Source: Myxococcota bacterium
GTDB taxonomy: Bacteria; Myxococcota_A; UBA796; UBA2385
Assembly: GCA_964226865.1 (NCBI GenBank)
Contig: CAXQUZ010000757.1
Coordinates: 2,370-66,369 of the forward strand
Direction of reading: 5' to 3'
Length of the DNA stretch: 64,000 bases
The notes under the pieces were generated by a model. The model did no database searches and was not told the DNA's origin. It was given only the letters and a program-made list of their open reading frames with translations. Made by a program: the position numbers and the translations under genes. Shown piece by piece: positions 19,064-64,000 of the stretch. How positions within the stretch are numbered: position 1 is the stretch's first letter; each line of letters opens with the position of its first letter.

Positions 19064-19106
19064 GGGGCCCGCTATCGCGCAGCGGCGCCCCGGGCCCCGG
19101 ACGAGA

Positions 19107-19484: not shown

Positions 19485-19635
19485 GGGGGTCTCCAGCAGG
19501 CAGGGCACAGGCCCCGGAGGCACCGTCCACACGACCGGCCCCGGGTCGCCCGGCCCCTATCGCAGGGCCGGCGCCGTGCCCCCCCCCGTTGGGCCGCCGA
19601 CCGGGTGCCCGCCAAGGGCAAGGAACCGGCGCCCC

Positions 19636-19678
19636 ATCTATTCTTGATTAGATGCTTGCTGAAGCATTGCGCTTCAGC
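19636..19678. promoter_or_regulatory. AT-rich island with two inverted repeats in the divergent intergenic region
   Basis: ATCTA-N8-TAGAT (19636-19653) and GCTGAAGC-ATTGC-GCTTCAGC (19658-19678), in the only AT-rich stretch between the Grx-like gene and the DUF2087 gene. A C9 run lies at 19579-19587. Confidence 0.4.
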
Positions 19679-19755
19679 GTAGACGTTCCCGTGCACCATC
19701 CACGCTGTAGACCCCGCGGCCCGCGCCGCCCCCCCCCTCGCGCCCGGAGCGCCCC

Positions 19756-44438: not shown

Positions 44439-46166
44439 TTGCCCCGTCCCGTCCCCGGTGCCCGCCTGCTCCTGCTCGGCCTGCTCGGCCCGGGCTGCGG
44501 GCCCGCCCCCGCCCCCGGTGCCCCGACCGCCCCGGCCGGCGCCGGCCTCCCGACCGCCGACACGGGCCCCGCCGCCGACAGCGCAGCCCCCCGGGCGGTC
44601 CTGCCCGTGCCCGACACCCCGGGCTGGGTCCACACCGACCCGGCCCCCGCCGCCCCCTGTGCCGACCCCGAGGCCCGCGCGCGCCTCGGCCCCGGGGCCT
44701 GGGTGGACGACCCGACGGGCCCCGCCGCCCTGGGCGACTTCGCGGGCGAGCTGCCCGGCTCGACCATGTCCATGGCCGTCGGCGACATCGACGGCGACGG
44801 CGTCTTCGACCTGGTCTACGGGCGCCCGGACGGCGTGCGGCTCTACCACGGCACCGGCGACGGCCGCTTCGCCCCGATGGCCCCCGGGGCCTGGCCCGGC
44901 CTCGAGCCCGCCGACCAGCTCCTCAGCGGCGTCATCCTCGTCGACCTCGACGACGACGGCGACCTCGACGTGGTCGCCACCCACCGCACCCGGCTGCCCC
45001 GCCGCTACGAGAACGACGGCCACGGCCACTTCACGGCCCACGACGACCTCGACCCCAGCCCGGCCCCCCTGGCCCACGTGGGCAGCGCCGTGGGCGACCT
45101 CGACGGCGACGGCCAGCTCGACCTCTTCGTCGGCGGCAACCAGCCCGCCCGCTTCGACCCGGCCGATCCCGTGCCCGCCGAGCCCGCCGCCGTCTTCGAC
45201 CTGGCCGGGGGGGTGCTGCGGCCCCACAGCGTCGCCCTGCCCGCCGCCGCCCACCCGGGCTACACCTTCGTCACGGGCCTCGTGGACCTCGACGAAGATG
45301 GCTTGCTTGACGCCCTTCTCATCAACGACCACGGGGCCTTTGGCGGGCCGAACCAGCTGCTCTGGAACCGGTCCCGGCCCGGCACGCTCGACTTCGCCGT
45401 CGACGACGGCAGCCACGGCCTCACCCTGACCATGCTCGGCATGGGCCTCGGCGTGGGCGACCTGAACGACGACGGCCGGCCCGATCTGGCGATCAGCAAC
45501 CGGGGCACCCCCAAGCTGCTGCTCAGCACCCCCGACGGCGCCTGGTACGACACGGCCTGGGCCTCCGGGGTGCGCGACAGCGACCGCTCCTCGGTGGGCT
45601 GGGGCACGGCCTTCGGCGACCTCGACAACGACGGCGACCTCGACCTGTCGATGGTCTTCGGCATGCTGCCCGGGGTGGGCGACGAGCACTTCCCCAACGA
45701 CCCCGAGCAGCCCGACAAGCTCTTCCTCAACGACGGCACGGGCCAGTTCACGGACGTGGCCGCGGCCTGGGGCCTCGACGACCGCTCGGTGGGCCGCAGC
45801 TCGGTGCTCGCCGACCTGAACGGCGACGGCTTCCTCGACGTGGTGCTGGCGCCCCAGTTCGCCCCGCCCCGGGTCTGGCTCGCCCGCTGCGACACCCAGG
45901 CCTGGCTGGCCGTCGCGCTCGTCCAGCCGCCGCCCAACATCGACGCCGTGGGCGCCAAGGTCCAGGTCGTGGCCGGCGACCGGGTCTGGACCCGCTGGGT
46001 GGCCGCCGGGGGCCGCAGCTTCGGCGCGAGCCCGCCCCTCGTGCTCCACTTCGGCCTGGGCATGCGGGATCGGGTCGACCGGGTGCTCGTCACCTGGCCC
46101 GACGGGGCCGTGACCGAGGCGACCGACCTGGCCACCCGCCAGCGCATCGAGCTGGGCCGCGACTGA
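44439..46166 (+). CDS. FG-GAP/VCBS repeat + ASPIC/UnbV protein (CRTAC1-like), lipoprotein-type signal
   Basis: Real part of ORF 43281..46166; proposed TTG start at 44439 (PRPVPGARLLLLGLLGPGC). Repeated GDxDGDGxxDL motifs. C-terminal GAKVQVVAGDRVWTRWVAAGGRSFGASPPLVLHFGLG is UnbV/ASPIC-like. Confidence 0.82.
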   Translation: MPRPVPGARLLLLGLLGPGCGPAPAPGAPTAPAGAGLPTADTGPAADSAAPRAVLPVPDTPGWVHTDPAPAAPCADPEARARLGPGAWVDDPTGPAALGDFAGELPGSTMSMAVGDIDGDGVFDLVYGRPDGVRLYHGTGDGRFAPMAPGAWPGLEPADQLLSGVILVDLDDDGDLDVVATHRTRLPRRYENDGHGHFTAHDDLDPSPAPLAHVGSAVGDLDGDGQLDLFVGGNQPARFDPADPVPAEPAAVFDLAGGVLRPHSVALPAAAHPGYTFVTGLVDLDEDGLLDALLINDHGAFGGPNQLLWNRSRPGTLDFAVDDGSHGLTLTMLGMGLGVGDLNDDGRPDLAISNRGTPKLLLSTPDGAWYDTAWASGVRDSDRSSVGWGTAFGDLDNDGDLDLSMVFGMLPGVGDEHFPNDPEQPDKLFLNDGTGQFTDVAAAWGLDDRSVGRSSVLADLNGDGFLDVVLAPQFAPPRVWLARCDTQAWLAVALVQPPPNIDAVGAKVQVVAGDRVWTRWVAAGGRSFGASPPLVLHFGLGMRDRVDRVLVTWPDGAVTEATDLATRQRIELGRD

Positions 46167-50557: not shown

Positions 50558-53500
50558 TCAGTCGGGGCGGGCCTCGACCTCGACCTGGGCCAGCCAGGCG
50601 GCCAGCCCCACGACGAGGCGCTCGCAGCGCGCGAGCTCGCCCTCGCGGGCGTGGTCCTCGATGTGGCGGCAGACCTCGGTGATCTGGGGGAAGCCATAGG
50701 CCCCGCCCGTGCCCTTGAAGCGGTGGGCCAGGCCGAGCAGCGCCGGGCGATCGTCCGCCGCGATGGCCGCCTGCATGCTGCGGATCGCCTCCCAGACGTC
50801 CTCGAGGTAGGCCGGCACCAGCGCCATGAGGGCCGGATCGAGCTGGACGGGGGCCTCGGGGGGCCGCAGGGCGGGCACGGGGGCGGGACTGTGGTCGAGG
50901 AGCACGGCGTCGAGGGCATCCTGGCGCACGGGCTTCTCGATGATGTGGGCGATGCCGAGGCCCGCGAGGCGCGCCGCGACCGGGGCCTCGGTGTGGGCCG
51001 AGACGATCACGATGGTGGCGGCGGGCCGGCCGGGGCGCTCGAGGGCCCGCATGCGCGCGGCCACCTCGTCGCCCATCATGTCGGGCATCTCGAGGTCGAG
51101 CAGCACGAGCTGGGGCCACCAGAGCACGAAGCGGCGCAGGGCCTCGGCGGCGCTGTCGGCCATCACGACGTGGGGCTGGTCGGCCTTGCGCAGCCGCAGC
51201 TCGAGGAGCTGGCGGGCGCTGGCGTCGTCGTCGACCACCAGCACCCGCGGCCGGGGCCCGCGCCAGGCGTCGAGGGCATGCAGCAGGCCGGCCCGGGCAA
51301 TGGGCTTGGTGAGGAAGCCGTTCATGCCCGCCTCTTCGCAGCGGCGGCGCACGGCCGCGGTCGCGTGGGCGGTCAGCGCCAGCACGGGCAGGTGGGCCAT
51401 GGGCCCGGCGCGGAGCAAGCGGGTGGCCTGGATGCCGTCCATATCGGGCATCTGGACGTCCATGAGCACCAGGTCGATGCCGCCCTCTTCGGCCCGGGCC
51501 ACCGCCTCGGCGCCCGTGCCCGCCACCACCACCTCGCAGCCGGCGTTCCGCAGGTAGTGCTCAGCGACGACGCGGTTGTTCGGATCGTCCTCGGCCAGCA
51601 GCACCCGCCCCCGGCCCACGGCGGGCGCGGCCACCCGCTCGCTCTGGTCGAGCAGGGCCCGGCGCAGGGCCTCTCGGGTCACGGGCCGGCGGACGTGGGC
51701 GTCGACCCCCGTGGGCACGGGCTCGGCGTGGGCGAGGCAGACCACCACCCGCAGCCCGGCGTCCCGGAACGCCCCGAGCCGGGCGCCGAGCACCCGCCGG
51801 TCGACCAGCACCGCCGCCATGCCGGCCAGCCTCGCGTCCGCGCCGAGCACCCGCACCTTGGCGCCGAGGTTCTCGAGCTGGGTGCGCACGGGGCCGAGCT
51901 GGCGCATGGGCAGGTCGATGCCCACGAGGCGCTCGAGCAGGGGCCGCTGGTGGGGCGGGCCGCTCAGCAGCCGGGCGCCGGGCAGGTGGAGCAGGAAGCA
52001 GGCGCCGGGGCGCTCGGGATCGTCGGGCTCGAGGGTCAGGAAGCCGCCCATGCGCTCGGCGAGGTTGCGGCTGATGCTGAGGCCGAGGCCCGTGCCCGGA
52101 CCGGCCCGGTCGCCCCGCTCGAAGCGGGAGAAGATGCGCTCCCGGGCCGCCGCCGAGACCCCGGGGCCGGCGTCCCGCACCCGGACGAAGAGGTCGCGCT
52201 CGACCGCCTCCACCGTGACCAATACATTGCCGTCTTCGGCGTGCTGGAGGGCATTCGAGACGAGGTTGGCCACGATCTGGCGCACCCGGGCCGCGTCGCC
52301 CAGGGTGCACCGGGCCCCGGGCTCGACGGCCACGTCGAGGGTGCGGCCCCGGCGCACGGCGGTGGCGGCGAAGCCGGCCGCGATGTCTTCGCACAGGGCG
52401 CCGATGTCGAAGCGCTCCCGGGCCAGCTCGAGGGTGTCGGACTCGATGCGCGAGAAGTCGAGCAGGTCGCTGAGCAGGTGGTGGAGCTGGGCGCTCGCCG
52501 CCCGCACCGAGCCGACGAGGTCGGCCTGGGTCGGCGTCAGGGCGCTGTCCATCACCAGCTCGGTCATGCCCATGATGGCGTTGAGCGGGGTGCGGATCTC
52601 GTGGGAGATGCTGGCCAGGAAGTCGTTCTTGGCGAGGTTGGCGCGCTCGGCTGTCTCCTTGGCCTCCCGGAGCTGCTCGGCGGCCCGCACCCGCTCGGTG
52701 ATGTCGCGGTAGACCCAGAGGCGGCCCCGGATCTGGCCGCCGTCGAGGATGGGCCGCGAGGTGCGCTCGAGCACCCGCCCGTCGCGGGTGGAGAGGGTGT
52801 CTTGCACGGCGCCCCGCCCCCCCTCGGCGGCCCGGACCGTGGCGAGGAAGCCCGCCGGGTCGACGAAGAGCCGCGAGGCCTCGACCGAGACGGGCCCGCT
52901 GGGCAGCCCCACGAGGGCCCCCACCTCGGCGAGCCCGAAGAGCCGCCCGAAGGCCGGGTTGGCCAGCGCCACCCGCCCCTCGGCGTCCTCGACCATCACC
53001 CCGTCGTCCATGGCCTCGAGCAGCGCCTGGTTGCGCAGATCCACCACGGCGAGGGTGTGGGAGACGTCGGTGACCGCGCGCTCCTGGCGGGCCAGCCGCC
53101 GCGCCCAGCCCCCCACCGCCCGGAGCACCTGGCCGATGAGGGGGCTGAGGCGCTGGGCGAGGTCGATGGAGGCCGGCCCGAAGTGGCCCCGCTGGGGGTG
53201 CACACAGACGAGCATGCCCTCGCCCTGGCCGAGCCGCAGGGGCACGCAGAGGACCGAGACCACCCCCTCCCGGTCGGCCGCGCCGCGGTCGCGCCAGAGG
53301 GGGGCGTGGGCGGCGTCGAAGAAGGCCACCGGGCGACCGGCGGCGGCCCGGGCCAGGGGGCCCGTCCAGTGCCAGCCCTCGCCGCAGGGCCAGCCGGGGC
53401 GGGTCGAGGCGGCCACGGCGGCCGCGTCGCCGGCGCGCAGCAGCACGAAGGCCTCGGCGTAGTCCAGCAGGGGGCGCAGCATGTCGAGGGTGAGGTCGAG

Positions 53501-53659
53501 CAGCTCGTCCTCGTTGCTGGCCTCGACCAACACCCGCACCGCCTCGAGGGCCGCCGCCGACTCGCTGCGCAGGCGGCGCTCGCGGGTCTCGGCCCGGTGC
53601 AGCGCGAGCTGGGCTTCCTGGAGCAGCTCGCGCAGGGTCGCCGCGTCGCCCTCAGACAT
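50558..53659 (-). CDS. Hybrid sensor histidine kinase (GAF-PAS-HisKA-HATPase-REC-REC-HPt)
   Basis: 1033 aa. H-box SHEIRTPLNAIMG. GTGLGLSISRNL. Two receiver domains (LLAEDDPNN...LVLMDVQMPDMDG; VLVVDDDASA...LVLLDLEMPDMMG). C-terminal HPt AHRFKGTGGAYG. Confidence 0.93.
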   Translation of the reverse strand: MSEGDAATLRELLQEAQLALHRAETRERRLRSESAAALEAVRVLVEASNEDELLDLTLDMLRPLLDYAEAFVLLRAGDAAAVAASTRPGWPCGEGWHWTGPLARAAAGRPVAFFDAAHAPLWRDRGAADREGVVSVLCVPLRLGQGEGMLVCVHPQRGHFGPASIDLAQRLSPLIGQVLRAVGGWARRLARQERAVTDVSHTLAVVDLRNQALLEAMDDGVMVEDAEGRVALANPAFGRLFGLAEVGALVGLPSGPVSVEASRLFVDPAGFLATVRAAEGGRGAVQDTLSTRDGRVLERTSRPILDGGQIRGRLWVYRDITERVRAAEQLREAKETAERANLAKNDFLASISHEIRTPLNAIMGMTELVMDSALTPTQADLVGSVRAASAQLHHLLSDLLDFSRIESDTLELARERFDIGALCEDIAAGFAATAVRRGRTLDVAVEPGARCTLGDAARVRQIVANLVSNALQHAEDGNVLVTVEAVERDLFVRVRDAGPGVSAAARERIFSRFERGDRAGPGTGLGLSISRNLAERMGGFLTLEPDDPERPGACFLLHLPGARLLSGPPHQRPLLERLVGIDLPMRQLGPVRTQLENLGAKVRVLGADARLAGMAAVLVDRRVLGARLGAFRDAGLRVVVCLAHAEPVPTGVDAHVRRPVTREALRRALLDQSERVAAPAVGRGRVLLAEDDPNNRVVAEHYLRNAGCEVVVAGTGAEAVARAEEGGIDLVLMDVQMPDMDGIQATRLLRAGPMAHLPVLALTAHATAAVRRRCEEAGMNGFLTKPIARAGLLHALDAWRGPRPRVLVVDDDASARQLLELRLRKADQPHVVMADSAAEALRRFVLWWPQLVLLDLEMPDMMGDEVAARMRALERPGRPAATIVIVSAHTEAPVAARLAGLGIAHIIEKPVRQDALDAVLLDHSPAPVPALRPPEAPVQLDPALMALVPAYLEDVWEAIRSMQAAIAADDRPALLGLAHRFKGTGGAYGFPQITEVCRHIEDHAREGELARCERLVVGLAAWLAQVEVEARPD

Positions 53660-54878
53660 CGAGCTCTCCGTCGCCGAGCAGCCCCTCGCGGGTGAGCATG
53701 ACCGCCGAGGTCATCAGGTTGGCGTGGAGGTTGCCGGGACGGTCCATGCGCGGGCCCTGCTCGCCGAAGGTGAACCAGCCCAGCACCGGTGCCGGCCCGA
53801 GCCGGGCCCGGAGCGCCCCCACCACCTCAGAGATGTCTTTGCGCATCACCAGGGCATAGCCGACGCAGTGGATGGTGATGCCGCCCACGACGGGCTCGCC
53901 CTGGATGGCCTCGGTGGTGACCCGGCCCATGCGGGCGGCCAGCCCGTCCGCCGTGCCCTCCATCAACACCAGCTCTTCGCCGGTCTCGACCTCGGTGAGC
54001 ATGTCCATGCTGCCGTCGGGGTGGAGGTCGACGGGCAGGGTCAGGGCATAGATGGGCAGCCGGTTGACCGTGCCGATCTGGCGGCCGAGGGGGCTCAGGG
54101 TGGTCTGGGCCATCACCGAGCCCTCGGGCGCGAGGGCCGGCGCCATCGAGCCCTCCGTCCACCGGTCGTAGACGGGCCCCGCCGGCTCGCCGTCGATCTC
54201 GTAGATGCGCCGGCCCGCCGCCCGGGTGACCCGGCCCCGCAGCGCCGTCGGCACGAAGCCCGAGCGGTTGGCCTGGCGCAGCCGCCGGGAGGGGAAGAGG
54301 GCCACCACCACGACGGCATCCGCGCTCGTGCCCTCGGGGCCCGCGAGCATCCAGCGGCCCGCGAAGTCGTTGTCGCCGGCCGAGCCCCCGAGCACGGGCA
54401 TCTGGGGGCCGACCACGTCCTCGATGCCCATGAGCAGCTGCTCTTCGGCGCCCGCCACCCCCATCATCAGGGCGGCCTCGGGCAGCTCTCCCTCGCGGCC
54501 GGCCGCGGCGATGGCCCGGGCCACGGCCACCTGGGCCGCCGCCCGGGGGTCGTCGCCCAGCCGCTGGAGGCAGACCCCGAAGGCCCCCTCCGGGTCGACC
54601 AGGCCGAAGGCCCCCACCGCCGGGCCGGGCATGTAGCCCTCGTGGGTGAGCAGGCCGACGGCGGTGGTCGTGCCGGCGACGGCGGCCGCGGGGAAGGCCG
54701 CCCGCACCAGCGAGACCAGGGCACCGAGGGGGTGCTCTTCGGTGCAGACGACCAGCACGAGCTGGGGCCGCGCGCCCAGCTGGGCCCGCAGCGCGTCGAC
54801 GACCCGGGCCCCGAGCAGGGACGTGTCGGTGCCGGTCTCGGCGAAGGTGGCGACGCGCAGCTCGGAAGACGCAGTCAA
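53652..54878 (-). CDS. FIST N/C domain signalling protein
   Basis: ORF 53652..55061 trimmed to TTG 54878 (GGAGG 5 nt upstream), because the longer ORF would overlap speA. FIST-like LVLVVCTEEH..., VLGGSAGDNDF..., GGITIHCVGYALV. The stop overlaps the kinase start by 8 nt. Confidence 0.82.
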   Translation of the reverse strand: MTASSELRVATFAETGTDTSLLGARVVDALRAQLGARPQLVLVVCTEEHPLGALVSLVRAAFPAAAVAGTTTAVGLLTHEGYMPGPAVGAFGLVDPEGAFGVCLQRLGDDPRAAAQVAVARAIAAAGREGELPEAALMMGVAGAEEQLLMGIEDVVGPQMPVLGGSAGDNDFAGRWMLAGPEGTSADAVVVVALFPSRRLRQANRSGFVPTALRGRVTRAAGRRIYEIDGEPAGPVYDRWTEGSMAPALAPEGSVMAQTTLSPLGRQIGTVNRLPIYALTLPVDLHPDGSMDMLTEVETGEELVLMEGTADGLAARMGRVTTEAIQGEPVVGGITIHCVGYALVMRKDISEVVGALRARLGPAPVLGWFTFGEQGPRMDRPGNLHANLMTSAVMLTREGLLGDGELDV

Positions 54879-54912
54879 CTCAGCCTCCGGGCGAGCGGGG
54901 TCGGCCCCCGGC

Positions 54913-56823
54913 TCACTCCAGGTAGGTGTAGCCCTCGAGACCCTGCTGGTACATGCCCACGAGGCGGGCGGTCTCTTCGGGAGTGACGTGGCCCGCGCGC
55001 ACCGCACGCTCGCACGCCGCGCGCACCATGCGCACCAGCTCTCGTCGGCTGTATTGCACATAGCTCACGACATCGGCCACACGGTCGCCTTCCAACACAT
55101 GCTCCAGCTCGTAGTCGCCGTCCTCGCCGAGGCGCACCACCACGGCGTTCGTGTCGCCGAAGAGGTTGTGGAGATCACCCAGGATCTCCTGGTAGGCGCC
55201 GACGAGGAAGGCGCCCAGCACGTAGGGCGTCTCGGGGTCTTCGGGGAGGTCGTGCAGCTCGAGCACCCGCTTGACGTCGTGGAGGTCGATGAAGCGGTCG
55301 AGCTTGCCGTCGCTGTCGCAGGTGATGTCGGCGAGCACGGCCGTGCGGTTGGGCTTCTCTTCGAGGCGGTGGATGGGCACGACCGGGAAGAGCTGGTCGA
55401 CGGCCCAGGCGTCCGGCATGCTCTGGAACACGCTGAAGTTGCAGAAGTAGGTGTCGGCCAGGGCGCGCTTGAGGCCAGCGAGGTCGTCGGGCACGTAGCT
55501 GAGGCCCGCGGTGACCTTGCCGATGCGGCCGACGATCTGCCAGTAGAGCTTCTCGGCGGTGGCGCGCTGGCGCAGGCTGAGCAGCCCCAGGTTGAACATG
55601 TTCAGGGCCTGCTCGCGGCCGCCGAGGGCGTCGTGCCAGGCGGCCTGGTAGTTCTTCTCGGTGATGCCGCCGGCGAGCACGTCGCGCAGCTCGGTGAGCA
55701 CCTCGGGCGCGTCGGCCTCGAGGGCCACGGCGGTCGAGACGGTCGGGTGGGCCGAGACGCCGAGGATGTTGAAGAGCAGCACGGCGTGGTGGGCCACCAT
55801 CGCGCGGCCCGACTCGGTGACGATGTCGGGGTGGGGCTGGCCGGCCTCGTCGCAGGCGCTCTGGATGGCGGCCACGACGTCCTGGGCGTACTCGCGCACG
55901 CTGTAGTTCACCGAGCTGGCGAAGTTGGTGGACGAGCCGTCGTAGTCGACGCCCAGGCCGCCGCCCACGTCGAGGTAGCGCAGGTCGGCGCCGAGGCTGC
56001 GCAGCTCGACGAAGAGCCGGCTGGCCTCCTTGAGGGCCGACTTGAAGGACCGGATGGCCGAGACCTGAGAGCCGATGTGGAAGTGGAGCAGCTGGAGGCA
56101 GTCCAGCTTGCCCTTCTCCGCGAGAAGATCGACCAGCTCAACAATCTCGAGCACGGTGAGGCCGAACTTGGCCTTGTCGCCCGTGCTGGCCTCCCAGCGG
56201 CCGGCGCCCTTGCTGGCGAGCTTGGCCCGCACCCCGAGGATGGGGTCGATGCCGTGGATCTCGGCCAGCCGCAGGGCCGTGTGGACCTCGCTGAACTTCT
56301 CGATGACGATGATCGGACGGCGGCCCATGCGCTGGGCCAGCATGGCCGTCTCGATGTACTCCTCGTCCTTGTAGCCATTGCAGACGATGATGGCCTCGGG
56401 ATCGTCCATCAGGGCCAGCACCACGAGCAGCTCGGGCTTCGAGCCGCACTCGAGGCCGAGGTGCCAGGGGCGGCCGGCCTTGACGATCTGCTCGACGAGG
56501 TGGCGCTGCTGGTTCACCTTGATGGGGTAGACGCCGCGGTAGCGCCCGCCGTAGCCGTACTCGGCGATGGCCTCGTGGAAGGCGCCGGCGAGGGTGCGGA
56601 TGCGGGCCTCGAGCAGATCCGGGAAGCGCAGCAGCAGGGGCATGCCGATGCCCCGGCGCTGGATGTCGTCGGCGAGGGTCTTCAGGTCGACCCAGGGGCC
56701 GTCGTCCCCAGCGGGCGCGAGCACGAGGTTGCCGTCGGGACCGATGCGGAGGAACTCGCGGCCCCAGTTGGGAATGCCGTAGAGATCGGCACTGTCATGA
56801 ATGGACCAGCGGCGCATGCTCAC
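54913..56823 (-). CDS. speA: Biosynthetic arginine decarboxylase
   Basis: 636 aa. WSIHDSADLYGIPNWG N-terminus, YPIKVNQQRHLVE PLP-lysine region, HFHIGSQ and CDSDGKLDRF motifs characteristic of SpeA. Confidence 0.97.
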   Translation of the reverse strand: MSMRRWSIHDSADLYGIPNWGREFLRIGPDGNLVLAPAGDDGPWVDLKTLADDIQRRGIGMPLLLRFPDLLEARIRTLAGAFHEAIAEYGYGGRYRGVYPIKVNQQRHLVEQIVKAGRPWHLGLECGSKPELLVVLALMDDPEAIIVCNGYKDEEYIETAMLAQRMGRRPIIVIEKFSEVHTALRLAEIHGIDPILGVRAKLASKGAGRWEASTGDKAKFGLTVLEIVELVDLLAEKGKLDCLQLLHFHIGSQVSAIRSFKSALKEASRLFVELRSLGADLRYLDVGGGLGVDYDGSSTNFASSVNYSVREYAQDVVAAIQSACDEAGQPHPDIVTESGRAMVAHHAVLLFNILGVSAHPTVSTAVALEADAPEVLTELRDVLAGGITEKNYQAAWHDALGGREQALNMFNLGLLSLRQRATAEKLYWQIVGRIGKVTAGLSYVPDDLAGLKRALADTYFCNFSVFQSMPDAWAVDQLFPVVPIHRLEEKPNRTAVLADITCDSDGKLDRFIDLHDVKRVLELHDLPEDPETPYVLGAFLVGAYQEILGDLHNLFGDTNAVVVRLGEDGDYELEHVLEGDRVADVVSYVQYSRRELVRMVRAACERAVRAGHVTPEETARLVGMYQQGLEGYTYLE

Positions 56824-56956: not shown

Positions 56957-57703
56957 TCAGGGGTTGTCGTGGCGGTCCTTCACGTGGCCCGCCACCACGG
57001 TCTCGAGCAGGGCGGCCGCCGCCGCGTCCCCGCCGGGCCCGTCGAGGGCGCCCACCGCCACACAGCGGGTGGCGTGGCCCGGGGCGGTGACCAGCACCCG
57101 CCGGCCGCCCCGCACGACCACCACCGTGCCGCTCTCGAGGTGGGGCGCGAGGGCCGTGTGGGCCCGGTCGCAGCGGAAGCCGCGGTTCTCGTCGAAGACC
57201 GCAGCGGCGACGGCGGCCTGCTGGGCGGGGCTGAGCGAGACCAGCGCGGCCTCCCGGCAGTCGGTGCGGGCCGCCCCCCCGAGCATCGCCAGCACGACCG
57301 GATCGGCCGGCCCCCGCCGCAGCACCAGCTCCTGGCGCTGGCCCTTGCGGCGGATCACGAGGGCGATCTCGCCGGTGCCGGGAACCGCGTCGATGGCGGC
57401 GTTCAGCCCGGCCGCGTCGGCGATGGCCACACCGTTGGCCTCGACCACCACGTCGCCGTCTTCGAGCAGGGCGGCCGCGGGGCTGCCGGGGCTGCGGGCC
57501 GTGACCACCACCCGGCCCCCCCGGCCCCGGTAGCTCAGGCCGAGCCACTGGCGCTGGGTCTGGAGGGCCGCGAGGTCGGCGCTGCGGTCGCGCCAGGCGG
57601 GGGTGAGCTCGGCGAGCTGGAGCCCGATGGGGCAGGGATCGCCCGCCCAGGCCGGGGCCGAGACGAGCAGCGAGGCGAGGAGGGGAAGCAGGGCCGCAGG
57701 CAT
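56957..57703 (-). CDS. Secreted PDZ domain protein
   Basis: ORF 56957..58339 trimmed to ATG 57703 (MPAALLPLLASLLVSAPAWA signal). PDZ-like GLSYRGRGGRVVVTARSPGSPAAALLEDGDVVVEANGVAI. Confidence 0.68.
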   Translation of the reverse strand: MPAALLPLLASLLVSAPAWAGDPCPIGLQLAELTPAWRDRSADLAALQTQRQWLGLSYRGRGGRVVVTARSPGSPAAALLEDGDVVVEANGVAIADAAGLNAAIDAVPGTGEIALVIRRKGQRQELVLRRGPADPVVLAMLGGAARTDCREAALVSLSPAQQAAVAAAVFDENRGFRCDRAHTALAPHLESGTVVVVRGGRRVLVTAPGHATRCVAVGALDGPGGDAAAAALLETVVAGHVKDRHDNP

Positions 57704-57768: not shown

Positions 57769-59451
57769 TCAGCGGGCCCAGGCGTGGGCGCCCGCCGGCA
57801 CGTCCCGGTGCTCCTGGGTGCTGCCGTCGGGCCAGGTGAGGGTCACCCGGTCGGCGGCGGCCGCCCCCATCAGCGGCGCCTCGACGACCAGCTCGCCCGA
57901 CGAGCCGATGCCCCCCGGCAGCATCCAGCCCGTCCACCGGTGGGGCCCGACGGCCACCTCGACCCGGGTGCCGATGCCGTGGGGGTTGCCCGGGCCGGCG
58001 TCGAGGGCCAGCCGCAGCCCCGTCTCGCAGCCCCCCTCGACCCCCCAGAGCCGGGCCGTCGGGCCGCCGGCGAGGAACAGCTCGCTGCGCCCGTCGCCGT
58101 CCACGTCGATGCGCACGAGGGCGCGGTGGTTCTCGGGGCTGTCGAAGCCCAGCGCGGCGCCCACATCCGAGAAGCCCGCGGGCCCGGCGAGCAGCAGGGC
58201 GTCGTGCTGGTCGTCGGACCAGGTGAAGCCCTCGCCGAGCAGCCCGATGCTCTCGCGCTGGACCTCGGCGATGTGGCCGAAGGCCGTGAGGATGTCGCTG
58301 CGGCCGTCCCGGTCGAGGTCGTGCACGAGGGCGCCCCACGAGACCAGCCGCTCGGGGTCGGCCCCGAGGTCGGCGCCGAGGGCCCGGGCCGTCTCGTAGA
58401 AGCTGCCGTCGGGCAGGCTCGCCAGCAGCTTGGGGCCGCCGATGTCGGTGATCCAGAGGTCGGGCAGCCCGTCGCCGGTGGCGTCGCCCACGGCCGCCGC
58501 CATGCCGTACATCGAGAGGTCGCAGGCGCAGTCCTCGTCGACGCTGAAGACGCCGTGGCCGTCGTTCTCGAGCAAGAGGTTCGGCACGATGAAGGGGCCG
58601 AAGTCGTTGGCCAGGTAGAGGTCGAGGTCGCCGTCCCCGTCGGCATCGAGCACGGCGGCCTCTTGGGTGTGGGCCGGGTGGACGGCGGCGGGCAGCCGGT
58701 CGCTGGCGTCGGTGAAGACGCCCGGGGCCGCCTGGAGGTAGAGGCTCGAGGGGTCGCCCGGCGGGGCCAGGCTGGTGATCTCTTCGAGGGAGACATCGGC
58801 CTCGAAGCGCCGGGCCACGAAGAGGTCGAGGCGGCCGTCGCCGTCGAGATCGGCGAAGCTGCCCGTGCCCGTGAAGCCGTCGCTGGCGGGCAGGGCCGTG
58901 GCCGTGAAGCCGAAGGCGCCGTCGTTCCAGAGCAGCAGGTCGGGGCTGCCGCTCGGGGTGCCGAGGAAGAGGTCGAGGTCGCCGTCCTCGTCGAGATCTG
59001 CCGCCGCGACGGCCTGGGCCGGGGGCGCCGGGCTGCCGTCGACGAGCAGCGGCCCGGGGCTGAGCACCCCGTCGGCGTTGCGAAGGCTGCGCGCCCCCCT
59101 GCGGCTGGCCAGCACGATGTCGGCCTGGCCGTCGCCGTCGAAGTCGCCGACCGCCGCCCCCCAGCCGCCCACCAGGGGCTCGTGGCCGACCGGCCAGTGC
59201 TGCCGCAGGTGCAGCGTCGGGGCCGGGCAGACCACCGGCGCGGGGCTGGCCGTGTCGTCGCCGTCCCCGCCGCCGCCCGTGCCCTCGCCCCCGTCCGTGC
59301 CCCCGGCGCCGCTCCCGGCCCCGTCCGCCCCGCTTCCCCCGGCGCTGTCGGTGGTCCCGGCGGCCGGCTTGCGGGCCTCCCCCGTGCAGCCCCCCGCCGC
59401 CGCCCAGAGCAGCAGCCCCGCCGCGGTCCGGCCCCGCCGTCCGCGGCTCAT
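57769..59451 (-). CDS. FG-GAP/VCBS repeat + ASPIC/UnbV lipoprotein (CRTAC1-like), second copy
   Basis: ORF 57769..60771 trimmed to ATG 59451 (MSRGRRGRTAAGLLLWAAAGGC lipobox). G/D/T-rich linker, repeated GDFDGDGQADI / DLDGDGRLDL motifs. C-terminal GIGTRVEVAVGPHRWTGWMLPGGIGSSGELV. Confidence 0.85.
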   Translation of the reverse strand: MSRGRRGRTAAGLLLWAAAGGCTGEARKPAAGTTDSAGGSGADGAGSGAGGTDGGEGTGGGGDGDDTASPAPVVCPAPTLHLRQHWPVGHEPLVGGWGAAVGDFDGDGQADIVLASRRGARSLRNADGVLSPGPLLVDGSPAPPAQAVAAADLDEDGDLDLFLGTPSGSPDLLLWNDGAFGFTATALPASDGFTGTGSFADLDGDGRLDLFVARRFEADVSLEEITSLAPPGDPSSLYLQAAPGVFTDASDRLPAAVHPAHTQEAAVLDADGDGDLDLYLANDFGPFIVPNLLLENDGHGVFSVDEDCACDLSMYGMAAAVGDATGDGLPDLWITDIGGPKLLASLPDGSFYETARALGADLGADPERLVSWGALVHDLDRDGRSDILTAFGHIAEVQRESIGLLGEGFTWSDDQHDALLLAGPAGFSDVGAALGFDSPENHRALVRIDVDGDGRSELFLAGGPTARLWGVEGGCETGLRLALDAGPGNPHGIGTRVEVAVGPHRWTGWMLPGGIGSSGELVVEAPLMGAAAADRVTLTWPDGSTQEHRDVPAGAHAWAR

Positions 59452-59497: not shown

Positions 59498-60898
59498 TCA
59501 TGGCACCAGCTCCTCGGCGTCCAGTTGGGCATGGATCTGGTCGGCGATCCAGTGGTTCCCGTCGGCGCTGAGGCGGAGGTGCTGGGCGCTGTGGAAGAGG
59601 CGCCGCCGGTCGGGGTGGGCGAGGATGCCGCCCTGGAGGTCGACCAGGGGCAGGTCGCGCCCGGCGGCGATGCGCGCGAGGGCCGCCTGCTGGGCGGGCA
59701 GGGTCGAGAGGTTCTCGAGCACGACCCGGGCGCCCCGGGCCTCGGCGGCGGCGGCGATGCGCGCGATGTGGAGCGCGAGCAGGGTCTCCATCGTGTCGCG
59801 GGCGGCGTCGGCATCGGCCACCGAGCCGGCCCGGAGCCCGTGGGCCACGTCGGCGTCCTGGACCAGGGCGGCCCGGGCGCCCAGGGCATCGGCCGGGTCG
59901 AGGGTCTCGCCCGCCGTCCAGCGCAGGAAGGCGAGCAGGCTCCAGGCCTCGGCCGTGTCGGGATCCCGGGCCAGCGCCCCCTCGAGCAGCCCCGCGGCGC
60001 GCGCGAGCTCGGCCGGTCCGCCCCGCACGATGGCCACCCGGGCCTCGTCGATGGCCTCCCGCAGCACCATGTCGGTGTCGGCGCGGGCGGTCTCGCGGCG
60101 CTTCTGGGCGCTGCGGCGGGCGAGGGCCTGGGCAAAGTCGGGCCACCGCTGGCGCACCAAGGCGAGGGTCTCGGCGGCGCCGGCGAAGTCGCCCGTGCCC
60201 ACGAGGAGCCCGAACAGCCGCATGTGCTGGGCCGGTCGGGGGTCGGGCGAGAGGGCGAGGTGGGTATGCCAGGCGGCGAGGGCCGGGCCGAGCTCGTCCC
60301 GCTCGATGAGGGCCGTGGCCAGGGCGGCCCAAGCGGCCGGGTCGTCGGGCCGCTGCTCGGTGGCGCGGACCCGGGCCGACAGGGTGCCCTCCGCCGCCGG
60401 GGCGGGCGTGCCGCCGGGCGCCGGGGGGTGGAGCACGAGGCCCACCAGCCGGGGCAGCACGAGGGCATCCCAGGGCCGGGGCGCCGGGGGGGCCTGGGCG
60501 GCCGCGAGGGCCTCGGCCGAGCCGTCGAGGCGCCGGTTGATGTTGACCACCACCACATCGGGCTGGTGGGCATCGAGCAGGGCCTCGATGTTGGCCGAGA
60601 AGTGGTCGATGTTCTTGCCGCGCACGCCCCCGTTGACCACCCGGGCGTCGAGGCCGGGATGGTGGTCGCGCAGGGCATCCTCGAGCAGGGCCGGGTAGCT
60701 CTGGTCGGCGGGCAGGCCGAGGCCGAGGGTGTAGCAGGCGCCGAGGCAGAGCACGGTGAAGTCCCCGCCACCCGGGCCCCGGCGCTGGGCGTCGAGCAGC
60801 CCGAGGCCGAGGCCGAGCCCCTGGAGGGCCAGCTCGAGCAGCGCCACCCCGGCGAGCCCGCCCCCGATCACCCGCAGCAGCCGCCCCGCGCTCAGCAT
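59498..60898 (-). CDS. Membrane-anchored SGNH-like protein with TPR-like insertion (DltD/AlgX-position partner of the MBOAT)
   Basis: 466 aa. N-terminal anchor LRVIGGGLAGVALLELAL. Block I-like FTVLCLGACYTLG, then VVNGGVRG. Helical repeat insert (AWAALATALIERDELGPALAAW..., AEAWSLLAFLRW...). C-terminal SADGNHWIADQI (DxxH-like). Confidence 0.6.
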   Translation of the reverse strand: MLSAGRLLRVIGGGLAGVALLELALQGLGLGLGLLDAQRRGPGGGDFTVLCLGACYTLGLGLPADQSYPALLEDALRDHHPGLDARVVNGGVRGKNIDHFSANIEALLDAHQPDVVVVNINRRLDGSAEALAAAQAPPAPRPWDALVLPRLVGLVLHPPAPGGTPAPAAEGTLSARVRATEQRPDDPAAWAALATALIERDELGPALAAWHTHLALSPDPRPAQHMRLFGLLVGTGDFAGAAETLALVRQRWPDFAQALARRSAQKRRETARADTDMVLREAIDEARVAIVRGGPAELARAAGLLEGALARDPDTAEAWSLLAFLRWTAGETLDPADALGARAALVQDADVAHGLRAGSVADADAARDTMETLLALHIARIAAAAEARGARVVLENLSTLPAQQAALARIAAGRDLPLVDLQGGILAHPDRRRLFHSAQHLRLSADGNHWIADQIHAQLDAEELVP

Positions 60899-60928
60899 GG
60901 CCCGGCCCCCGGGCGGCCCGCGCCCCCC

Positions 60929-61087
60929 TCAGAACAAGGCATAGATGAACTCGGTGCGGTCTTGGCTCCACAGCAGCAGCAACAGCCCCAGACCGCCGAT
61001 GAGCACGACAGAGAGGGGCAGCTGCCACCACGCGGCATCGTCGGCGATGGCACGGCGGACACGGTCGAGCGGGCGGGGCGGCGACAT
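60929..61087 (-). CDS. Unlisted 52-aa single-pass membrane ORF with DltX-like C-terminal FIYxxF motif
   Basis: My own translation of the minus strand: MSPPRPLDRVRRAIADDAAWWQLPLSVVLIGGLGLLLLLWSQDRTEFIYALF-stop. The ATG lies 9 nt after the MBOAT stop, and the stop lies 30 nt before the SGNH-like start. Too short for the ORF track. Confidence 0.55.
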   Translation of the reverse strand: MSPPRPLDRVRRAIADDAAWWQLPLSVVLIGGLGLLLLLWSQDRTEFIYALF

Positions 61088-61096
61088 GCCCAGGGG

Positions 61097-62296
61097 CTAC
61101 CACGCTCCCAGCACGTGTCCCACCAGCGCGGCCAGCTTCGTGGGCCCGGTCATGAACACCACCACGCCGGCGCAGAAGTAGGTGACCGTGACGAAGACGG
61201 CGACGGGCGCCGGCACCCGCTGGAGCGCCCGGTGGAGGCCCCGGTGGCGGCGGCGGGCCTGCTGGACCCGCTGGACGAGCAGCACGCCGGCGGCGTGGTA
61301 GACGCCGAGGAACAGGAAGGCCGGCGACAGGCGGTGCCAGATCTGGACCAGGAAGACCGTGACGAAGACCCCGAGCACGAGGCGGCCCGGGCTGGCCTTG
61401 ACCCCGAAGAAGGGCAGCAGCACGTAGTCGCGGAAGAAAGTGTAGAGGGTGATGTGCCAGCGGCGCCAGAGGGTGGCGAGGTCGCGGGCGAGCAGGGGCC
61501 AGTCGAAGTTCTCCGGCACGGTGAGCCCAAAGAGGGCCCCGAGGCCGATGGCCACGTCGGAGTAGCCCGAGAAGTCGAGGTAGAGCTGGATGCCGGCGCC
61601 GTAGGCCGCGGCGAGGGCCTCCCAGCGGGCGTGGTCGCGGGGGGCCAGCAGCACGGGGCCCGCCCAGCGGCCGAGGGTGTCGGCCAGCACCAGCTTCTTC
61701 ACGAGCCCCACCCCGATGCGCACCAGGGCGAGGTTGAGCACCCCGAGGCCCGGGGCCGGCGCCTCGCGGAGCTGGCGCTGGAAGGGGCCGAAGCGCATGA
61801 GGGGGCCGGCCAGCAGCAGGGGCGGGAAGAAGAGCCACGCGAGAACATCGCGCGCTGGGGCATCTTCGATGGTTCCGCGGGCCCGCTCGACCCAGAGGTG
61901 GACGAGGCGGAAGGTGAGGAAGCTGAGGCCCAGGGGCACGAGGACGGCGTCGGCGCCGGGCAGGGGGTTGTGGGCCGGGGCGACGGCCAGGGCCCCGCCG
62001 GGGGGCGCCAGCACCTCGTAGAGCTTCCAGCCGACGAGGTGGGCCACGAGCAGCCCGAGCACCGCCGCCCGCTGCCACCGGGCCGGCCCCGCCCCCGCGC
62101 GCCCGAGGCGGGCCGACCAGGCGACCCCGCCGGCGGCCAGGCCGAGGTGGAGCAGGGACCAGCCGCCCGCCTGGATCCCGAGCAGCAGGGCGCCGGCCGC
62201 CGCAAGCAGCCAGGCCCGGGCGGGAGGGGCGAGGCCACGGGCCACCAGCGCCAGCAGGGCCAGGGCGCCGAGCAGGGCGGGGTGGGTCAGGGGCAC
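61097..62296 (-). CDS. MBOAT family O-acyltransferase (DltB/AlgI-like)
   Basis: 399 aa. LGLSFLTFRLVH, YLDFSGYSDVAIGLG, and LWRRWHITLYTFFRDYV with the conserved catalytic His. The GTG start overlaps the halogenase stop by 10 nt. Confidence 0.9.
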   Translation of the reverse strand: MPLTHPALLGALALLALVARGLAPPARAWLLAAAGALLLGIQAGGWSLLHLGLAAGGVAWSARLGRAGAGPARWQRAAVLGLLVAHLVGWKLYEVLAPPGGALAVAPAHNPLPGADAVLVPLGLSFLTFRLVHLWVERARGTIEDAPARDVLAWLFFPPLLLAGPLMRFGPFQRQLREAPAPGLGVLNLALVRIGVGLVKKLVLADTLGRWAGPVLLAPRDHARWEALAAAYGAGIQLYLDFSGYSDVAIGLGALFGLTVPENFDWPLLARDLATLWRRWHITLYTFFRDYVLLPFFGVKASPGRLVLGVFVTVFLVQIWHRLSPAFLFLGVYHAAGVLLVQRVQQARRRHRGLHRALQRVPAPVAVFVTVTYFCAGVVVFMTGPTKLAALVGHVLGAW

Positions 62297-63669
62297 GCGG
62301 GACCGAAGGCGTGGCTGCTGAGGCTGCCGAGGGCCCGGTGGAGGGGGTGGTCGGGGTTGGCCTCGACCGCCCGCACCATGGCCTCCATCTCGTCGAGCAC
62401 GGGGGGCGGCGGCCCGTAGACATCGCCCTGGAGCAGGGCCAGCACGTCGAGGCGGTGGGCGGGCTGGGAGAGGAACCAGGTGAAGAGCACGTTGAGCCGG
62501 TAGTAGAGGCTGATGAAGCGGTGCCAGGTGGCCGTGCCCCGGCGCATCATGGCGGCGTAGTCGGCGAAGTCGGCGGCCACGGGCGGACGCCCCTGGGCCC
62601 GGGAGGCGCGCACGGCCCGGGCGGCGGCGCTGGCCCCGGTGAGCGCGATGCTCACGCCGCTGGAGAAGATGGGATCGACGAAGCGGGCGGCGTCGCCCAC
62701 CAGCAGGAAGTCGTCGCCGTGGAGGGCGCGCATGGCGTAGCTGTAGTCGGCCTCGAGGCGCAGGGGCCGCACCCGCTCGGCCGCCGCCACCCGGGCCGCC
62801 AGCGCCGGCGTCGTCGCGAGACAGGCCGCGAAGAAGTCCGCCGCGCTGCCGCCGTGGGCCCGCCGGTCGCGCCGCTGGGCGACCACCCCGATGCTCGTGT
62901 GGTCGTCGTCGATGGGGATCTGCCAGATCCAGGCGTCGCGGAAGGGCAGGAAGTGGACCCAGATGTGGTCGGCCCGGTCGGTGCCCCGGTCGAAGCCCCG
63001 GAACCAGCTGTGGACGGCGAGCTGGTCGAAGACCGGGTCGTGCACCCGCAGGCCGAGCTGGCGCCCGAGCACCGTGGCCCGGCCGCTGCAGTCGAGCACG
63101 ATGTGGGCCCGCAGGGTGGCGGGGCCGCCGGGGCCCTGGAGGCGGAGGCGGGCCGGGCCGTGGGCGCCGCCGAGCTCGACCCCGGCCACCGCCGTCTCCT
63201 CGCGCACCTCGGCCCCGACCGACCGGGCGTGGTCGAGCAGGATCTTGTCGAAGCGGGCCCGGTCGACGTGGAAGGTGTGGGGGCGGTCGACGCCGGGCTG
63301 GGGCCGCTCGGCGAAGCGCAGGCTCGCGGTGGTGGCGGGCAGGGAGCCCGATGCAGACCCGGGCACGGCGAGGCCCTGCCAGTCGTGGGCGTGGAGGCGC
63401 GGGCTGCCGTGGGCCTGCCAGACGGCGCCGTACTTGCGGGGAAAGCCCGCCGCCTCGATGGTCTCGAGCAGCCCCAGCTCGGCGAGCACCCGGTTGGCCG
63501 CCGGCACCAGCGACTCGCCGACGTGGGGCCGAGGGAAGCGGGCGCGCTCGAGCACGACACAGCGCAGCCCGTCCGGAGCGAGCAGCCCCGCTGCCGCCGC
63601 GCCGGCCGGACCGCCGCCGATGATGGCGACATCGTAGGGACGCGGGTCACGGGCAGCAGGGGCGGGCAT
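62287..63669 (-). CDS. Flavin-dependent halogenase-like FAD enzyme (CndH/PltA-type motifs)
   Basis: ORF 62287..63804 trimmed to ATG 63669. DVAIIGGGPAGAAAAG (GxGxxG), HVGESLVP, FPRKYGAVW (conserved Lys position), AWIWQIPI (WxWxIP) and LVGDAARFVDPIFSSGV. Confidence 0.78.
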   Translation of the reverse strand: MPAPAARDPRPYDVAIIGGGPAGAAAAGLLAPDGLRCVVLERARFPRPHVGESLVPAANRVLAELGLLETIEAAGFPRKYGAVWQAHGSPRLHAHDWQGLAVPGSASGSLPATTASLRFAERPQPGVDRPHTFHVDRARFDKILLDHARSVGAEVREETAVAGVELGGAHGPARLRLQGPGGPATLRAHIVLDCSGRATVLGRQLGLRVHDPVFDQLAVHSWFRGFDRGTDRADHIWVHFLPFRDAWIWQIPIDDDHTSIGVVAQRRDRRAHGGSAADFFAACLATTPALAARVAAAERVRPLRLEADYSYAMRALHGDDFLLVGDAARFVDPIFSSGVSIALTGASAAARAVRASRAQGRPPVAADFADYAAMMRRGTATWHRFISLYYRLNVLFTWFLSQPAHRLDVLALLQGDVYGPPPPVLDEMEAMVRAVEANPDHPLHRALGSLSSHAFGPACP

Positions 63670-63728
63670 CGCGGGGCACTCCGAGAGACACGGGACGGGA
63701 CGGGGCGGCCCCCGACCAAGGCCGGAGC

Positions 63729-64000
63729 TTAGCCCGGTGGGCGCGCGGCCCCAGGGCGGCGCAGCTTGCCCCGCGCGGTCCGGGGCAGGGCCTCCACGAA
63801 GCACAGCTCATCGGGCAGCAGCGCGGCCGGCAGGCGCTGGCGCAGGGCCCGCCAGGCCGCCCGCAGGTCGGCCGGGGCGCCCGGATCCGCCTCGAGGGCG
63901 GCCACCAGGGCCCTGCCCGTCCAGTCGACCCGGGCCGCCGCCACCCCGGGCAGGGCCGCGCAGGCCGCCTCGACCTCCTCGGGCTGGATGCGGAAGCCCC
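63729..64000 (-). CDS. C-terminal fragment of an adenylate-forming enzyme (AMP-dependent synthetase/ligase); 5' part lies outside the window
   Basis: The frame is open to the window edge: GFRIQPEEVEAACAALPGVAAARV...FVEALPRTARGKLRR (A8 to A10 motifs of ANL adenylation domains). The tracked ORF 63729..63944 is only its tail. Confidence 0.72.
   Translation of the reverse strand, partial: GFRIQPEEVEAACAALPGVAAARVDWTGRALVAALEADPGAPADLRAAWRALRQRLPAALLPDELCFVEALPRTARGKLRRPGAARPPG

Follow-up and report, generated by a model that had tools for sequence, protein, structure and literature searches.

The downstream part of an eight-gene operon

The stretch of DNA analyzed here (hereafter the window, 64,000 nucleotides (nt) of contig CAXQUZ010000757.1 from a Myxococcota bacterium, assembly GCA_964226865.1) ends on the minus strand in a compact gene cluster, in which parts resembling the Dlt system of envelope acylation stand together with a flavin-dependent halogenase. 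Read in the direction of transcription, the 3′ end of an adenylating enzyme gene is followed after 59 nt by the halogenase gene, which overlaps by 10 nt with a gene for a membrane-bound O-acyltransferase (MBOAT); a microprotein gene begins 9 nt further on, and a gene for a membrane-anchored protein with SGNH-like and tetratricopeptide repeat (TPR) regions after another 30 nt. These five genes are succeeded, after 46 nt, by the gene of an FG-GAP/ASPIC repeat protein (Table 1). The original prediction had described this order on the basis of the sequence alone, and all its coordinates, gaps and the overlap were reproduced, including the positions of the FG-GAP/ASPIC gene and of the PDZ gene that comes next on the same strand. 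The PDZ gene was considered as a further part of the system and rejected, as it adjoins the operon in the window species only. At the G+C content of the window (75%), long chance open reading frames (ORFs) occur in all six frames; the five genes were nevertheless taken as real because of their strong Pfam, NCBIfam and PDB matches and because the same genes were called independently on near-identical metagenome contigs.

Since the window breaks off within the adenylating enzyme gene, the original prediction had proposed to look beyond position 64000 for the rest of this enzyme and for a carrier protein. Both were present on contig L039, which was found by an exact-sequence look-up of the halogenase (the look-up of the microprotein also returned contigs, and those of the MBOAT, the SGNH/TPR protein and protein P0001 gave no match). 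Contig L039 differs from window positions 61280-64000 by 1 mismatch in 2721 nt (99.96% identity) and extends 5.2 kb further, where the operon starts with genes for a carrier protein of 93 amino acids (aa) with a PP-binding domain and the serine motif GVLDSM, a 386-aa homologue of acyl-CoA dehydrogenases and the complete 512-aa adenylating enzyme. Given the near-identity across the overlap, the operon of the window organism starts with the same three genes. Upstream of the carrier gene of L039 lies a 150-nt spacer, followed by divergent peroxiredoxin-like and methyltransferase genes. The operon comprises eight genes (carrier, dehydrogenase, adenylating enzyme, halogenase, MBOAT, microprotein, SGNH/TPR protein, FG-GAP/ASPIC protein), tightly packed throughout by overlaps or gaps of no more than 59 nt, and its downstream two-thirds lie within the window. 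From the carrier to the FG-GAP/ASPIC gene (window and L039), no gene for a ketosynthase, thioesterase, condensation domain or soluble acyltransferase was found.

Contigs L001-L006 originate from several marine metagenomes, one TARA sample among them, and L001-L003 are 99.8-99.97% identical to the window, a near-identity across metagenomes that marks it as a recurrent uncultivated marine organism. A metagenome scan with the adenylating enzyme recovered relatives, and the window organism was not among the sequences recovered. Related metagenome-assembled genomes carry the label 'uncultured Enterobacterales', which a G+C content of 63-75% makes implausible.

Table 1. Genes at the minus-strand end of the window, with coordinates on the 64,000-nt stretch and the basis of each assignment
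Feature	Positions	Strand	Basis
Adenylating enzyme, 3′ end (last 89 codons and stop)	63729..64000	-	translation GFRIQPEEVE...LPRTARGKLRR, stop at 63729
Halogenase of PltA/Mpy16 type, FADH2-dependent, 460 aa, ATG start	62287..63669	-	Pfam, PDB matches, motifs
Short DltB-type MBOAT, 399 aa	61097..62296	-	Pfam MBOAT, NCBIfam DltB, PDB
DltX-like single-pass microprotein, 52 aa, ends FIYALF	60929..61087	-	ORF, conservation
Membrane-anchored SGNH-like/TPR protein, 466 aa	59498..60898	-	weak Pfam, alignments, AlphaFold2 model
FG-GAP/ASPIC (UnbV) repeat protein, 560 aa, probable lipoprotein	57769..59451	-	Pfam
PDZ protein	56957..57703	-	after FG-GAP/ASPIC gene

Enzymes predicted to act on the carrier protein

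The adenylating enzyme is a stand-alone protein without a fused carrier domain, and it scores above the cut-off of the NCBIfam model TIGR01733 (amino acid adenylation domain) and far under the cut-offs of the NCBIfam DltA models. Its ten specificity positions, which follow the numbering of GrsA-PheA, were located from the conserved core motifs by scripted mapping and read DLLYLALVCK. In the PDB alignment of the pocket region, PltF (6O6E) shows DLLYLALVC at the same columns, with 9 of 9 pocket residues as well as Lys517 identical, and the ligase in 7THN, identified as PigI by its partner chain PigG in that entry, shows DLFYIAWVC. The best PDB matches of the pocket region were these two L-proline–carrier ligases (7THN, 5.8e-19; 6O6E, 2.3e-15), with DltA weaker (7.7e-11), and the specificity residues of the relatives follow the pattern DL[L/F]Y[L/V]A[L/F]V[C/V]K. 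When the full-length enzyme was compared, the second module of LgrA (linear gramicidin synthase) came out as the top PDB match; it was dropped as a clue to the substrate because the pocket region and the specificity residues fit proline ligases. The substrate prediction from the adenylation domain that had been recommended at the outset thus yields a proline-type enzyme with the residues of PltF, and not the D-alanine specificity of a DltA.

The dehydrogenase, which lies outside the window and is part of the conserved core, had its closest PDB matches in the prolyl-ACP dehydrogenase AnaB (7.2e-69), chain B of 6CXT (4.3e-62), the Bmp3-Bmp1 carrier complex, and PigA (1.9e-59). In NCBIfam, PigA (1.8e-88) and RedW (1.9e-79) led, with the next family (1.4e-46) trailing by more than 30 orders of magnitude, and the protein is therefore a probable prolyl-carrier dehydrogenase with the acyl-CoA-dehydrogenase fold, of the kind found in pyrrolyl-S-carrier cassettes. 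As regards the carrier itself, its close homologue in L007 was nearest in the PDB to the carrier chain of 6CXT (Bmp1) and to PltL, then to DltC, and the best NCBIfam match of the 93-aa carrier of L039 was DltC (6.8e-09; 35.6 bits vs. a 68-bit cut-off).

The halogenase matches Pfam Trp_halogenase (5.5e-25) and aligns end to end with PltA (5.5e-122; alignment from residue 10 to 457), ChlB4 (2.2e-121) and 5BUK (2.6e-116), which is Mpy16. It carries the motifs GGGPAG (18-23), WIWQIP (247-252) and FVDPIFSSG (330-338) as well as Lys79, which aligns with the FPKKFGA segment of PltA. With GxGxxG, the catalytic Lys, WxWxIP and the PltA-type C-terminal region all present, the protein is predicted to be a flavin-dependent halogenase for carrier-tethered substrates, the class to which it had been ascribed earlier. 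PltF, PltL, PltE and PltA convert proline to 4,5-dichloropyrrolyl-S-PltL, and the residues of the adenylating enzyme together with the matches of the dehydrogenase and the halogenase point to this known route from proline to a halopyrrolyl-S-carrier. The original prediction had spoken of a possibly halogenated acyl or aminoacyl group; the halogenation part is supported by the set of enzymes found, while the generic cargo can be refined to a group that is most probably proline-derived pyrrole-2-carbonyl.

Membrane components and related loci

The MBOAT matches Pfam MBOAT (2.9e-20), its only PDB matches were to DltB (1.9e-28), and DltB was also the sole NCBIfam match (5.7e-45, 154 bits vs. a 375-bit cut-off); by its sequence it is DltB-like in architecture and, according to the equivalog test, not a DltB orthologue. 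His281 and His321 are invariant in an alignment of 18 family members. In the Dlt system, the D-alanine carried by DltC is transferred by DltB to the microprotein DltX, at a tyrosine of its C-terminal FXYXXF, and MBOATs that use acetyl-CoA, e.g., PatA, have the same motif fused at their own C-terminus and are said to work without a DltX-like microprotein, FXYXXF being the acyl-shuttle motif of both DltX and PatA (PMC12148441). A C-terminal FxYxxF was present in none of the 20 MBOATs (374-459 aa) closely related to that of the window, and in 57 of 100 longer AlgI/PatA-like homologues (88 of 100 with a relaxed pattern), i.e., the window family lacks the fused motif of PatAB/AlgIJ-type acetyltransferases. 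Its short length, the PDB matches confined to DltB and the missing fused motif place the MBOAT with the Dlt type, as first proposed, and not with the alginate and cellulose acetylases that had been named as the alternative.

The motif that is absent from the MBOAT is apparently supplied by the 52-aa microprotein. Its N-terminus is basic, a transmembrane segment spans residues 20 to 40 or so, and the C-terminal residues directly before the stop codon are F47-I-Y49-A-L-F52. In eight loci spanning 32-75% G+C, the ORF runs over exactly 33 ungapped codons from a WW motif to the stop, the ending [E/D]FIY[A/S]LF is invariant and the codon changes within the motif are synonymous; the FxYxxF tail is under purifying selection, and the conservation of the mini-ORF on which the original prediction depended is thereby borne out. 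In Pfam, the microprotein has a weak match to DUF5989 (PF19451) that reaches the last profile position, and one of its relatives passes the cut-off of this family (32 bits vs. 27 bits); the DltX model PF12459 gave E-values of about 0.05 for two relatives and no match for the window microprotein. Sequences of the family that overlaps DUF5989 lie at 60929-61087 of the window and at 11222-11473 of L033. No homologue apart from the query was retrieved in a sequence search with the 52-aa protein, and a literature search found no mention of DUF5989, which in general may be a family of DltX-like acyl-shuttle microproteins.

For the SGNH/TPR protein, all Pfam matches (NonGDSL, Lipase_GDSL_2, TPR) were weak, as was an NCBIfam match to the thioesterase/lysophospholipase TesA (3e-06). 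The AlphaFold2 model (mean predicted local distance difference test score 81) consists of a helix (4-39), an alpha/beta domain in two segments (46-135 and 390-461) and TPR helices between them (167-352); Foldseek searches with this model gave mostly TPR proteins and one SGNH esterase, and no DltD or PatB. Five homologues were obtained by sequence search, and further representatives were then gathered by profile search. Block I of the window protein reads G53-A-C55-Y-T, and all of the roughly 20 family members represented at full length carry G-[A/P/N]-C-[Y/F]-T. In block I of more remote proteins with this architecture, the serine of G-[D/A/E]-S (GDS, GAS, GES) stands in its place, which puts Cys55 at the nucleophile position. 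Asn89 and Gly91 of block II and Asn121 of block III are conserved. Thus, the description as a membrane-anchored SGNH-like/TPR protein stands as regards the anchor helix, the split domain and the TPR region, and had to be refined as regards the nucleophile: instead of the serine of DltD, there is GACYT with the invariant Cys55, together with the TPR insertion and without a conserved block V Asp/His pair.

The FG-GAP/ASPIC protein (Pfam FG-GAP_3, 1.5e-31; UnbV_ASPIC, 2.5e-07; N-terminal ...WAAAGGC) is encoded directly after the SGNH/TPR protein in the window, in L007 and in L033/L034, and possibly binds or presents the acceptor. A second, divergent FG-GAP/ASPIC-like coding region lies at 45021-46130 of the window on the plus strand, with 35% identity to the FG-GAP protein of L007 (tblastn).

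In the related loci of 63-72% G+C, genes were called with a third-position G+C filter. The halogenase-bearing arrangement was found in three lineages, i.e., the window, L007-L009 (71% MBOAT identity) and L036 (62%). L013 and L014 (42-49%) encode the MBOAT, carrier, dehydrogenase, proline-type adenylating enzyme, microprotein and Cys-type SGNH/TPR protein and no halogenase, the carrier, dehydrogenase and adenylating enzyme genes being placed between the MBOAT and the microprotein gene. The halogenase is likewise missing from L015 (49%), in which the MBOAT, carrier, dehydrogenase and adenylating enzyme are present and the microprotein and SGNH/TPR protein were not found in the 0.9 kb left on the contig past the adenylating enzyme gene. 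L023/L024 contain the carrier-dehydrogenase-adenylating enzyme trio alone. A distant Cys-type SGNH/TPR locus occurs at 32% G+C (L037/L038, positions 1-21509; GCA_964489445.1, contig CAZAYU010000002.1) and encodes a short MBOAT (392 aa), a carrier, an 812-aa fusion of radical-SAM and AMP-binding domains, B12-binding radical-SAM enzymes and a 50-aa microprotein ending in SEFIYSLF, surrounded by sulfatase-family, glycosyltransferase and flippase genes. For P0186, one of the Ser-type relatives, no MBOAT was found nearby. The synteny in relatives that the original prediction called for is hence evident: the MBOAT, microprotein and SGNH/TPR protein occur together in every related lineage examined with all three positions readable, and in most of these lineages the genes of the carrier, dehydrogenase and adenylating enzyme lie side by side.

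Further genes were noted at these loci. In L013 (6834-8804) and L014 (11120-13063), the MBOAT and carrier genes are separated by a gene, on the opposite strand (-), for an ABC exporter resembling MsbA/MdlB, and in L014 two ORFs at 17503-20162, after the SGNH/TPR gene, resemble secreted proteins of the sulfatase family (judged from sequence only). L015 has an apparent inserted mobile element (13900-14708; integrase/transposase-like translation only) after the adenylating enzyme gene, and L037/L038 an adjoining gene for a long MBOAT (479 aa) with its own fused EFVYFQF ending. In L007 (1561-5685), two Cys-rich probable lipoproteins without a Pfam match precede the carrier on the same strand, and before their genes lies that of a 688-aa protein, whose N-terminus resembles that of a lipoprotein and is combined with a PPDK_N domain (phosphoenolpyruvate-utilising, ATP-grasp-like), which is odd for a secreted protein; in the window organism, this place is taken by the peroxiredoxin-like and methyltransferase genes (L039). 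Downstream of the relay and FG-GAP/ASPIC genes, L033/L034 (14584-17881) carry genes for a YkuD_2 (L,D-transpeptidase-like) protein and a pyridoxal phosphate-dependent decarboxylase, and in the window the operon is followed on the same strand by a biosynthetic arginine decarboxylase SpeA (54913-56823); to link these decarboxylases with amine acceptors would be pure speculation.

Elsewhere in the window, a flagellin gene at 21104-22699 (+) argues for a motile bacterium, and a 2484-aa ORF at 32025-39476 (-) has a coding-like third-position G+C of 0.97 and no Pfam match at E <= 1e-5. Just downstream of SpeA, a 1033-aa hybrid histidine kinase (50558-53659, -) adjoins a FIST-domain sensor (53655-55061, -).

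Interpretation and comparison with known systems

On the basis of what the sequences show (which parts are present, how they are ordered and conserved, their motifs, the proline-type specificity residues and Cys in the place of Ser), we propose that the operon encodes a Dlt-type trans-membrane acyl relay, in which the cargo would be built on the carrier by a pyrrole cassette and then delivered to an extracytoplasmic acceptor (probability roughly 0.62). Its chemical steps, its topology and the existence of an acceptor are modelled on characterized homologues. According to this scheme, the stand-alone adenylating enzyme would activate L-proline and load it onto the phosphopantetheine arm of the 93-aa carrier, whereupon the acyl-CoA-dehydrogenase-like flavoenzyme would oxidise the prolyl-S-carrier to pyrrolyl-2-carboxyl-S-carrier, and the PltA-like halogenase, supplied with reduced flavin by a reductase encoded elsewhere, would chlorinate or brominate the carrier-bound pyrrole. 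The MBOAT would then take the acyl-carrier at the cytoplasmic face and move the (halo)pyrrole-2-carbonyl group to Tyr49 of the FIYALF tail outside the cytoplasm, from which the SGNH/TPR protein would accept it as a Cys55 thioester and deliver it to an extracytoplasmic acceptor, be it a glycan, lipid, protein or amine. In agreement with the original prediction, we infer by analogy that the transfer may be onto an envelope polymer or lipid.

Several observations weigh against this proposal. The dehydrogenase, the carrier and, with its score on the DltB model, the MBOAT all fall under the NCBIfam equivalog cut-offs. The closest PDB match of the dehydrogenase is AnaB, which stops at the two-electron oxidation and yields pyrroline, not pyrrole. 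The block V Asp/His pair of the SGNH/TPR protein is not conserved, and given this loss the protein could be non-catalytic. In L033-L035, the MBOAT-microprotein-SGNH/TPR trio stands alone, with no carrier or adenylating enzyme within 10 kb. Finally, the window operon contains no acceptor or polymer-synthesis gene and no flavin reductase gene. The likeness to the pyrroline-forming AnaB would also suit a different cargo, in which a prolyl or dehydroprolyl (pyrroline-carboxyl) group is handed to the MBOAT and the halogenase works on another substrate or on the post-transfer product, and so would the fact that most relatives with the relay and the dehydrogenase have no halogenase, which makes halogenation dispensable for the relay. 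We regard this as quite improbable, as the dehydrogenase has its top NCBIfam matches in PigA and RedW, which form pyrroles, the halogenase gene is located between those of the adenylating enzyme and the MBOAT and overlaps the latter by its 10 nt, and the halogenase is about as near to PltA and Mpy16, whose substrate is a pyrrolyl-S-carrier, as those two would be expected to be to each other.

It is somewhat less improbable, though still unlikely, that the relay serves for export and release. The Cys-type SGNH/TPR protein would then hydrolyze the exported halopyrrolyl group, and the system would be a trans-membrane thioesterase that leaves the envelope undecorated and releases halogenated pyrrole-2-carboxylate in free form, or halopyrroles once this is decarboxylated, to act as a diffusible toxin or signal. 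Such a role would account for an operon in which no thioesterase, ketosynthase or condensation domain is available for off-loading the carrier and for a window clade without acceptor-synthesis genes, and SGNH-fold proteins are often hydrolases, to which the TesA match (3e-06) of this one can be added, weak as it is. However, the characterized MBOAT-Tyr-SGNH relays are transferases (PMC12148441), an efficient hydrolase would hardly be expected without the His/Asp pair, which is lost here, the TPR insertion and the co-conserved FG-GAP/ASPIC lipoprotein suggest the binding of a macromolecular partner, and in the distant relative L037 the system is embedded in a glycosyltransferase/flippase locus. 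The adjacency of the two halves could, in principle, also be fortuitous, a cytoplasmic halopyrrole natural-product cassette having come to lie beside an ordinary acetyl-CoA-dependent MBOAT/SGNH system for polymer O-acetylation, and the loci with only one half (the membrane trio in L033/L034/L035, the carrier-dehydrogenase-adenylating trio in L023/L024) as well as the name 'AlgI' given to close MBOAT homologues in JGI annotations would fit with this. Against it stand the gene overlaps and the packing on a single strand, the interleaving of the cytoplasmic genes between the MBOAT and microprotein genes in L013/L014, the recurrence of the carrier and adenylating enzyme with the relay even at 32% G+C, a cassette without any other off-loading enzyme, and the fact that acetyl-CoA-dependent MBOATs fuse the Tyr motif to their C-terminus (PMC12148441), which 0 of 20 close relatives of the window MBOAT do; chance adjacency is thus very unlikely.

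If the Dlt-type acyl relay is accepted as the preferred reading, it might represent an undescribed class of 'programmable' envelope-acylation systems, in which a conserved relay installs, via the Cys55 thioester, a cargo shaped by natural-product enzymes, i.e., the conversion of proline to pyrrole plus halogenation here and radical-SAM chemistry in L037. We put this forward tentatively, at somewhat short of even odds. The acceptor could possibly be an amine, giving halopyrrole-2-carboxamide linkages. Bacteria would in that case have a route to the dihalopyrrole-carboxamide motif known from marine alkaloids, and a bacterial surface covalently decorated with a halogenated group would be a first.

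A full-text literature search found no paper that combines a halogenase with an MBOAT, or pyrrole with an MBOAT and a carrier protein; the seven papers that combine DltB with 'pyrrol' were unrelated, and the DltX literature found was confined to Firmicutes. The view that the combination of a halogenase with Dlt-like parts is not a described pathway was therefore upheld. Both halves are known systems, and no description was found of their fusion, of a cysteine-type terminal transferase or of DltX-like microproteins outside Dlt. In this operon, Dlt/MBOAT envelope acylation, so far associated with D-alanine or acetate, meets type II nonribosomal peptide synthetase pyrrole/halogenase chemistry, so far associated with diffusible small molecules. 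Should the relay operate as proposed, the logic of DltB, DltX and DltD would not be restricted to D-alanine or to Firmicutes, an SGNH-fold acyltransferase could use a cysteine nucleophile outside the cytoplasm, and a bacterial surface or extracellular molecule would be covalently tagged with a halogenated aromatic group. DltX-like microproteins would then exist outside Dlt, contrary to what has been stated (PMC12148441), and part of DUF5989 would gain a function. The small operon also offers a way to study a marine lineage that is abundant and uncultivated.

Among known systems, DltXABCD of Firmicutes and the Dlt-like loci of some Gram-negatives share with this operon the stand-alone adenylating enzyme, the small carrier, a short MBOAT without a fused motif, a separate single-pass microprotein with FxYxxF, an N-terminally anchored SGNH-like protein and tight packing. 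The operon differs from them in that the cargo would be derived from proline and not D-alanine, with a dehydrogenase and a halogenase to tailor it on the carrier; the terminal enzyme has Cys in place of Ser, no conserved His/Asp pair and a TPR insertion, the microprotein matches DUF5989 rather than DltX, all parts fall under the Dlt equivalog cut-offs, and teichoic-acid genes are absent.

The cassettes that form pyrrolyl-S-carriers (PltF/PltL/PltE/PltA of pyoluteorin; Bmp1-4; Mpy; PigI/PigG/PigA; RedM/RedO/RedW) have in common with the operon all four parts, namely a proline ligase with the residues of PltF, a type II carrier, a prolyl-carrier dehydrogenase and a PltA/Mpy16-like halogenase (Lys, WxWxIP). 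In contrast to these cassettes, off-loading by a ketosynthase, thioesterase or soluble acyltransferase has no counterpart in the operon, and since only the MBOAT, microprotein and SGNH/TPR protein are candidates for this step, the product would exit the cytoplasm as an acyl group. The acetylation systems of peptidoglycan (PatA/PatB), alginate (AlgI/AlgJ/AlgX) and cellulose resemble the window in their MBOAT, the acyl-Tyr in FxYxxF and an SGNH-fold transferase (PMC12148441). In these acetyltransferase pairs, the motif is fused to a longer MBOAT and acetyl-CoA is the donor, without carrier or microprotein, whereas the layout in the window is split and carrier-dependent.

Further counterparts are the sister loci L013, L014 and L037/L038, with the same short MBOAT, carrier, adenylating enzyme and Cys-type SGNH/TPR protein and with a microprotein that ends in [E/D]FIYSLF. 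L013 and L014 have, in addition, the ABC exporter and sulfatase-family genes, whereas in L037 radical-SAM enzymes, including one that is fused to the adenylating enzyme, take the place of the dehydrogenase and halogenase. Across all the related loci, the relay is hence the conserved unit, and the enzymes that tailor the cargo on the carrier vary.

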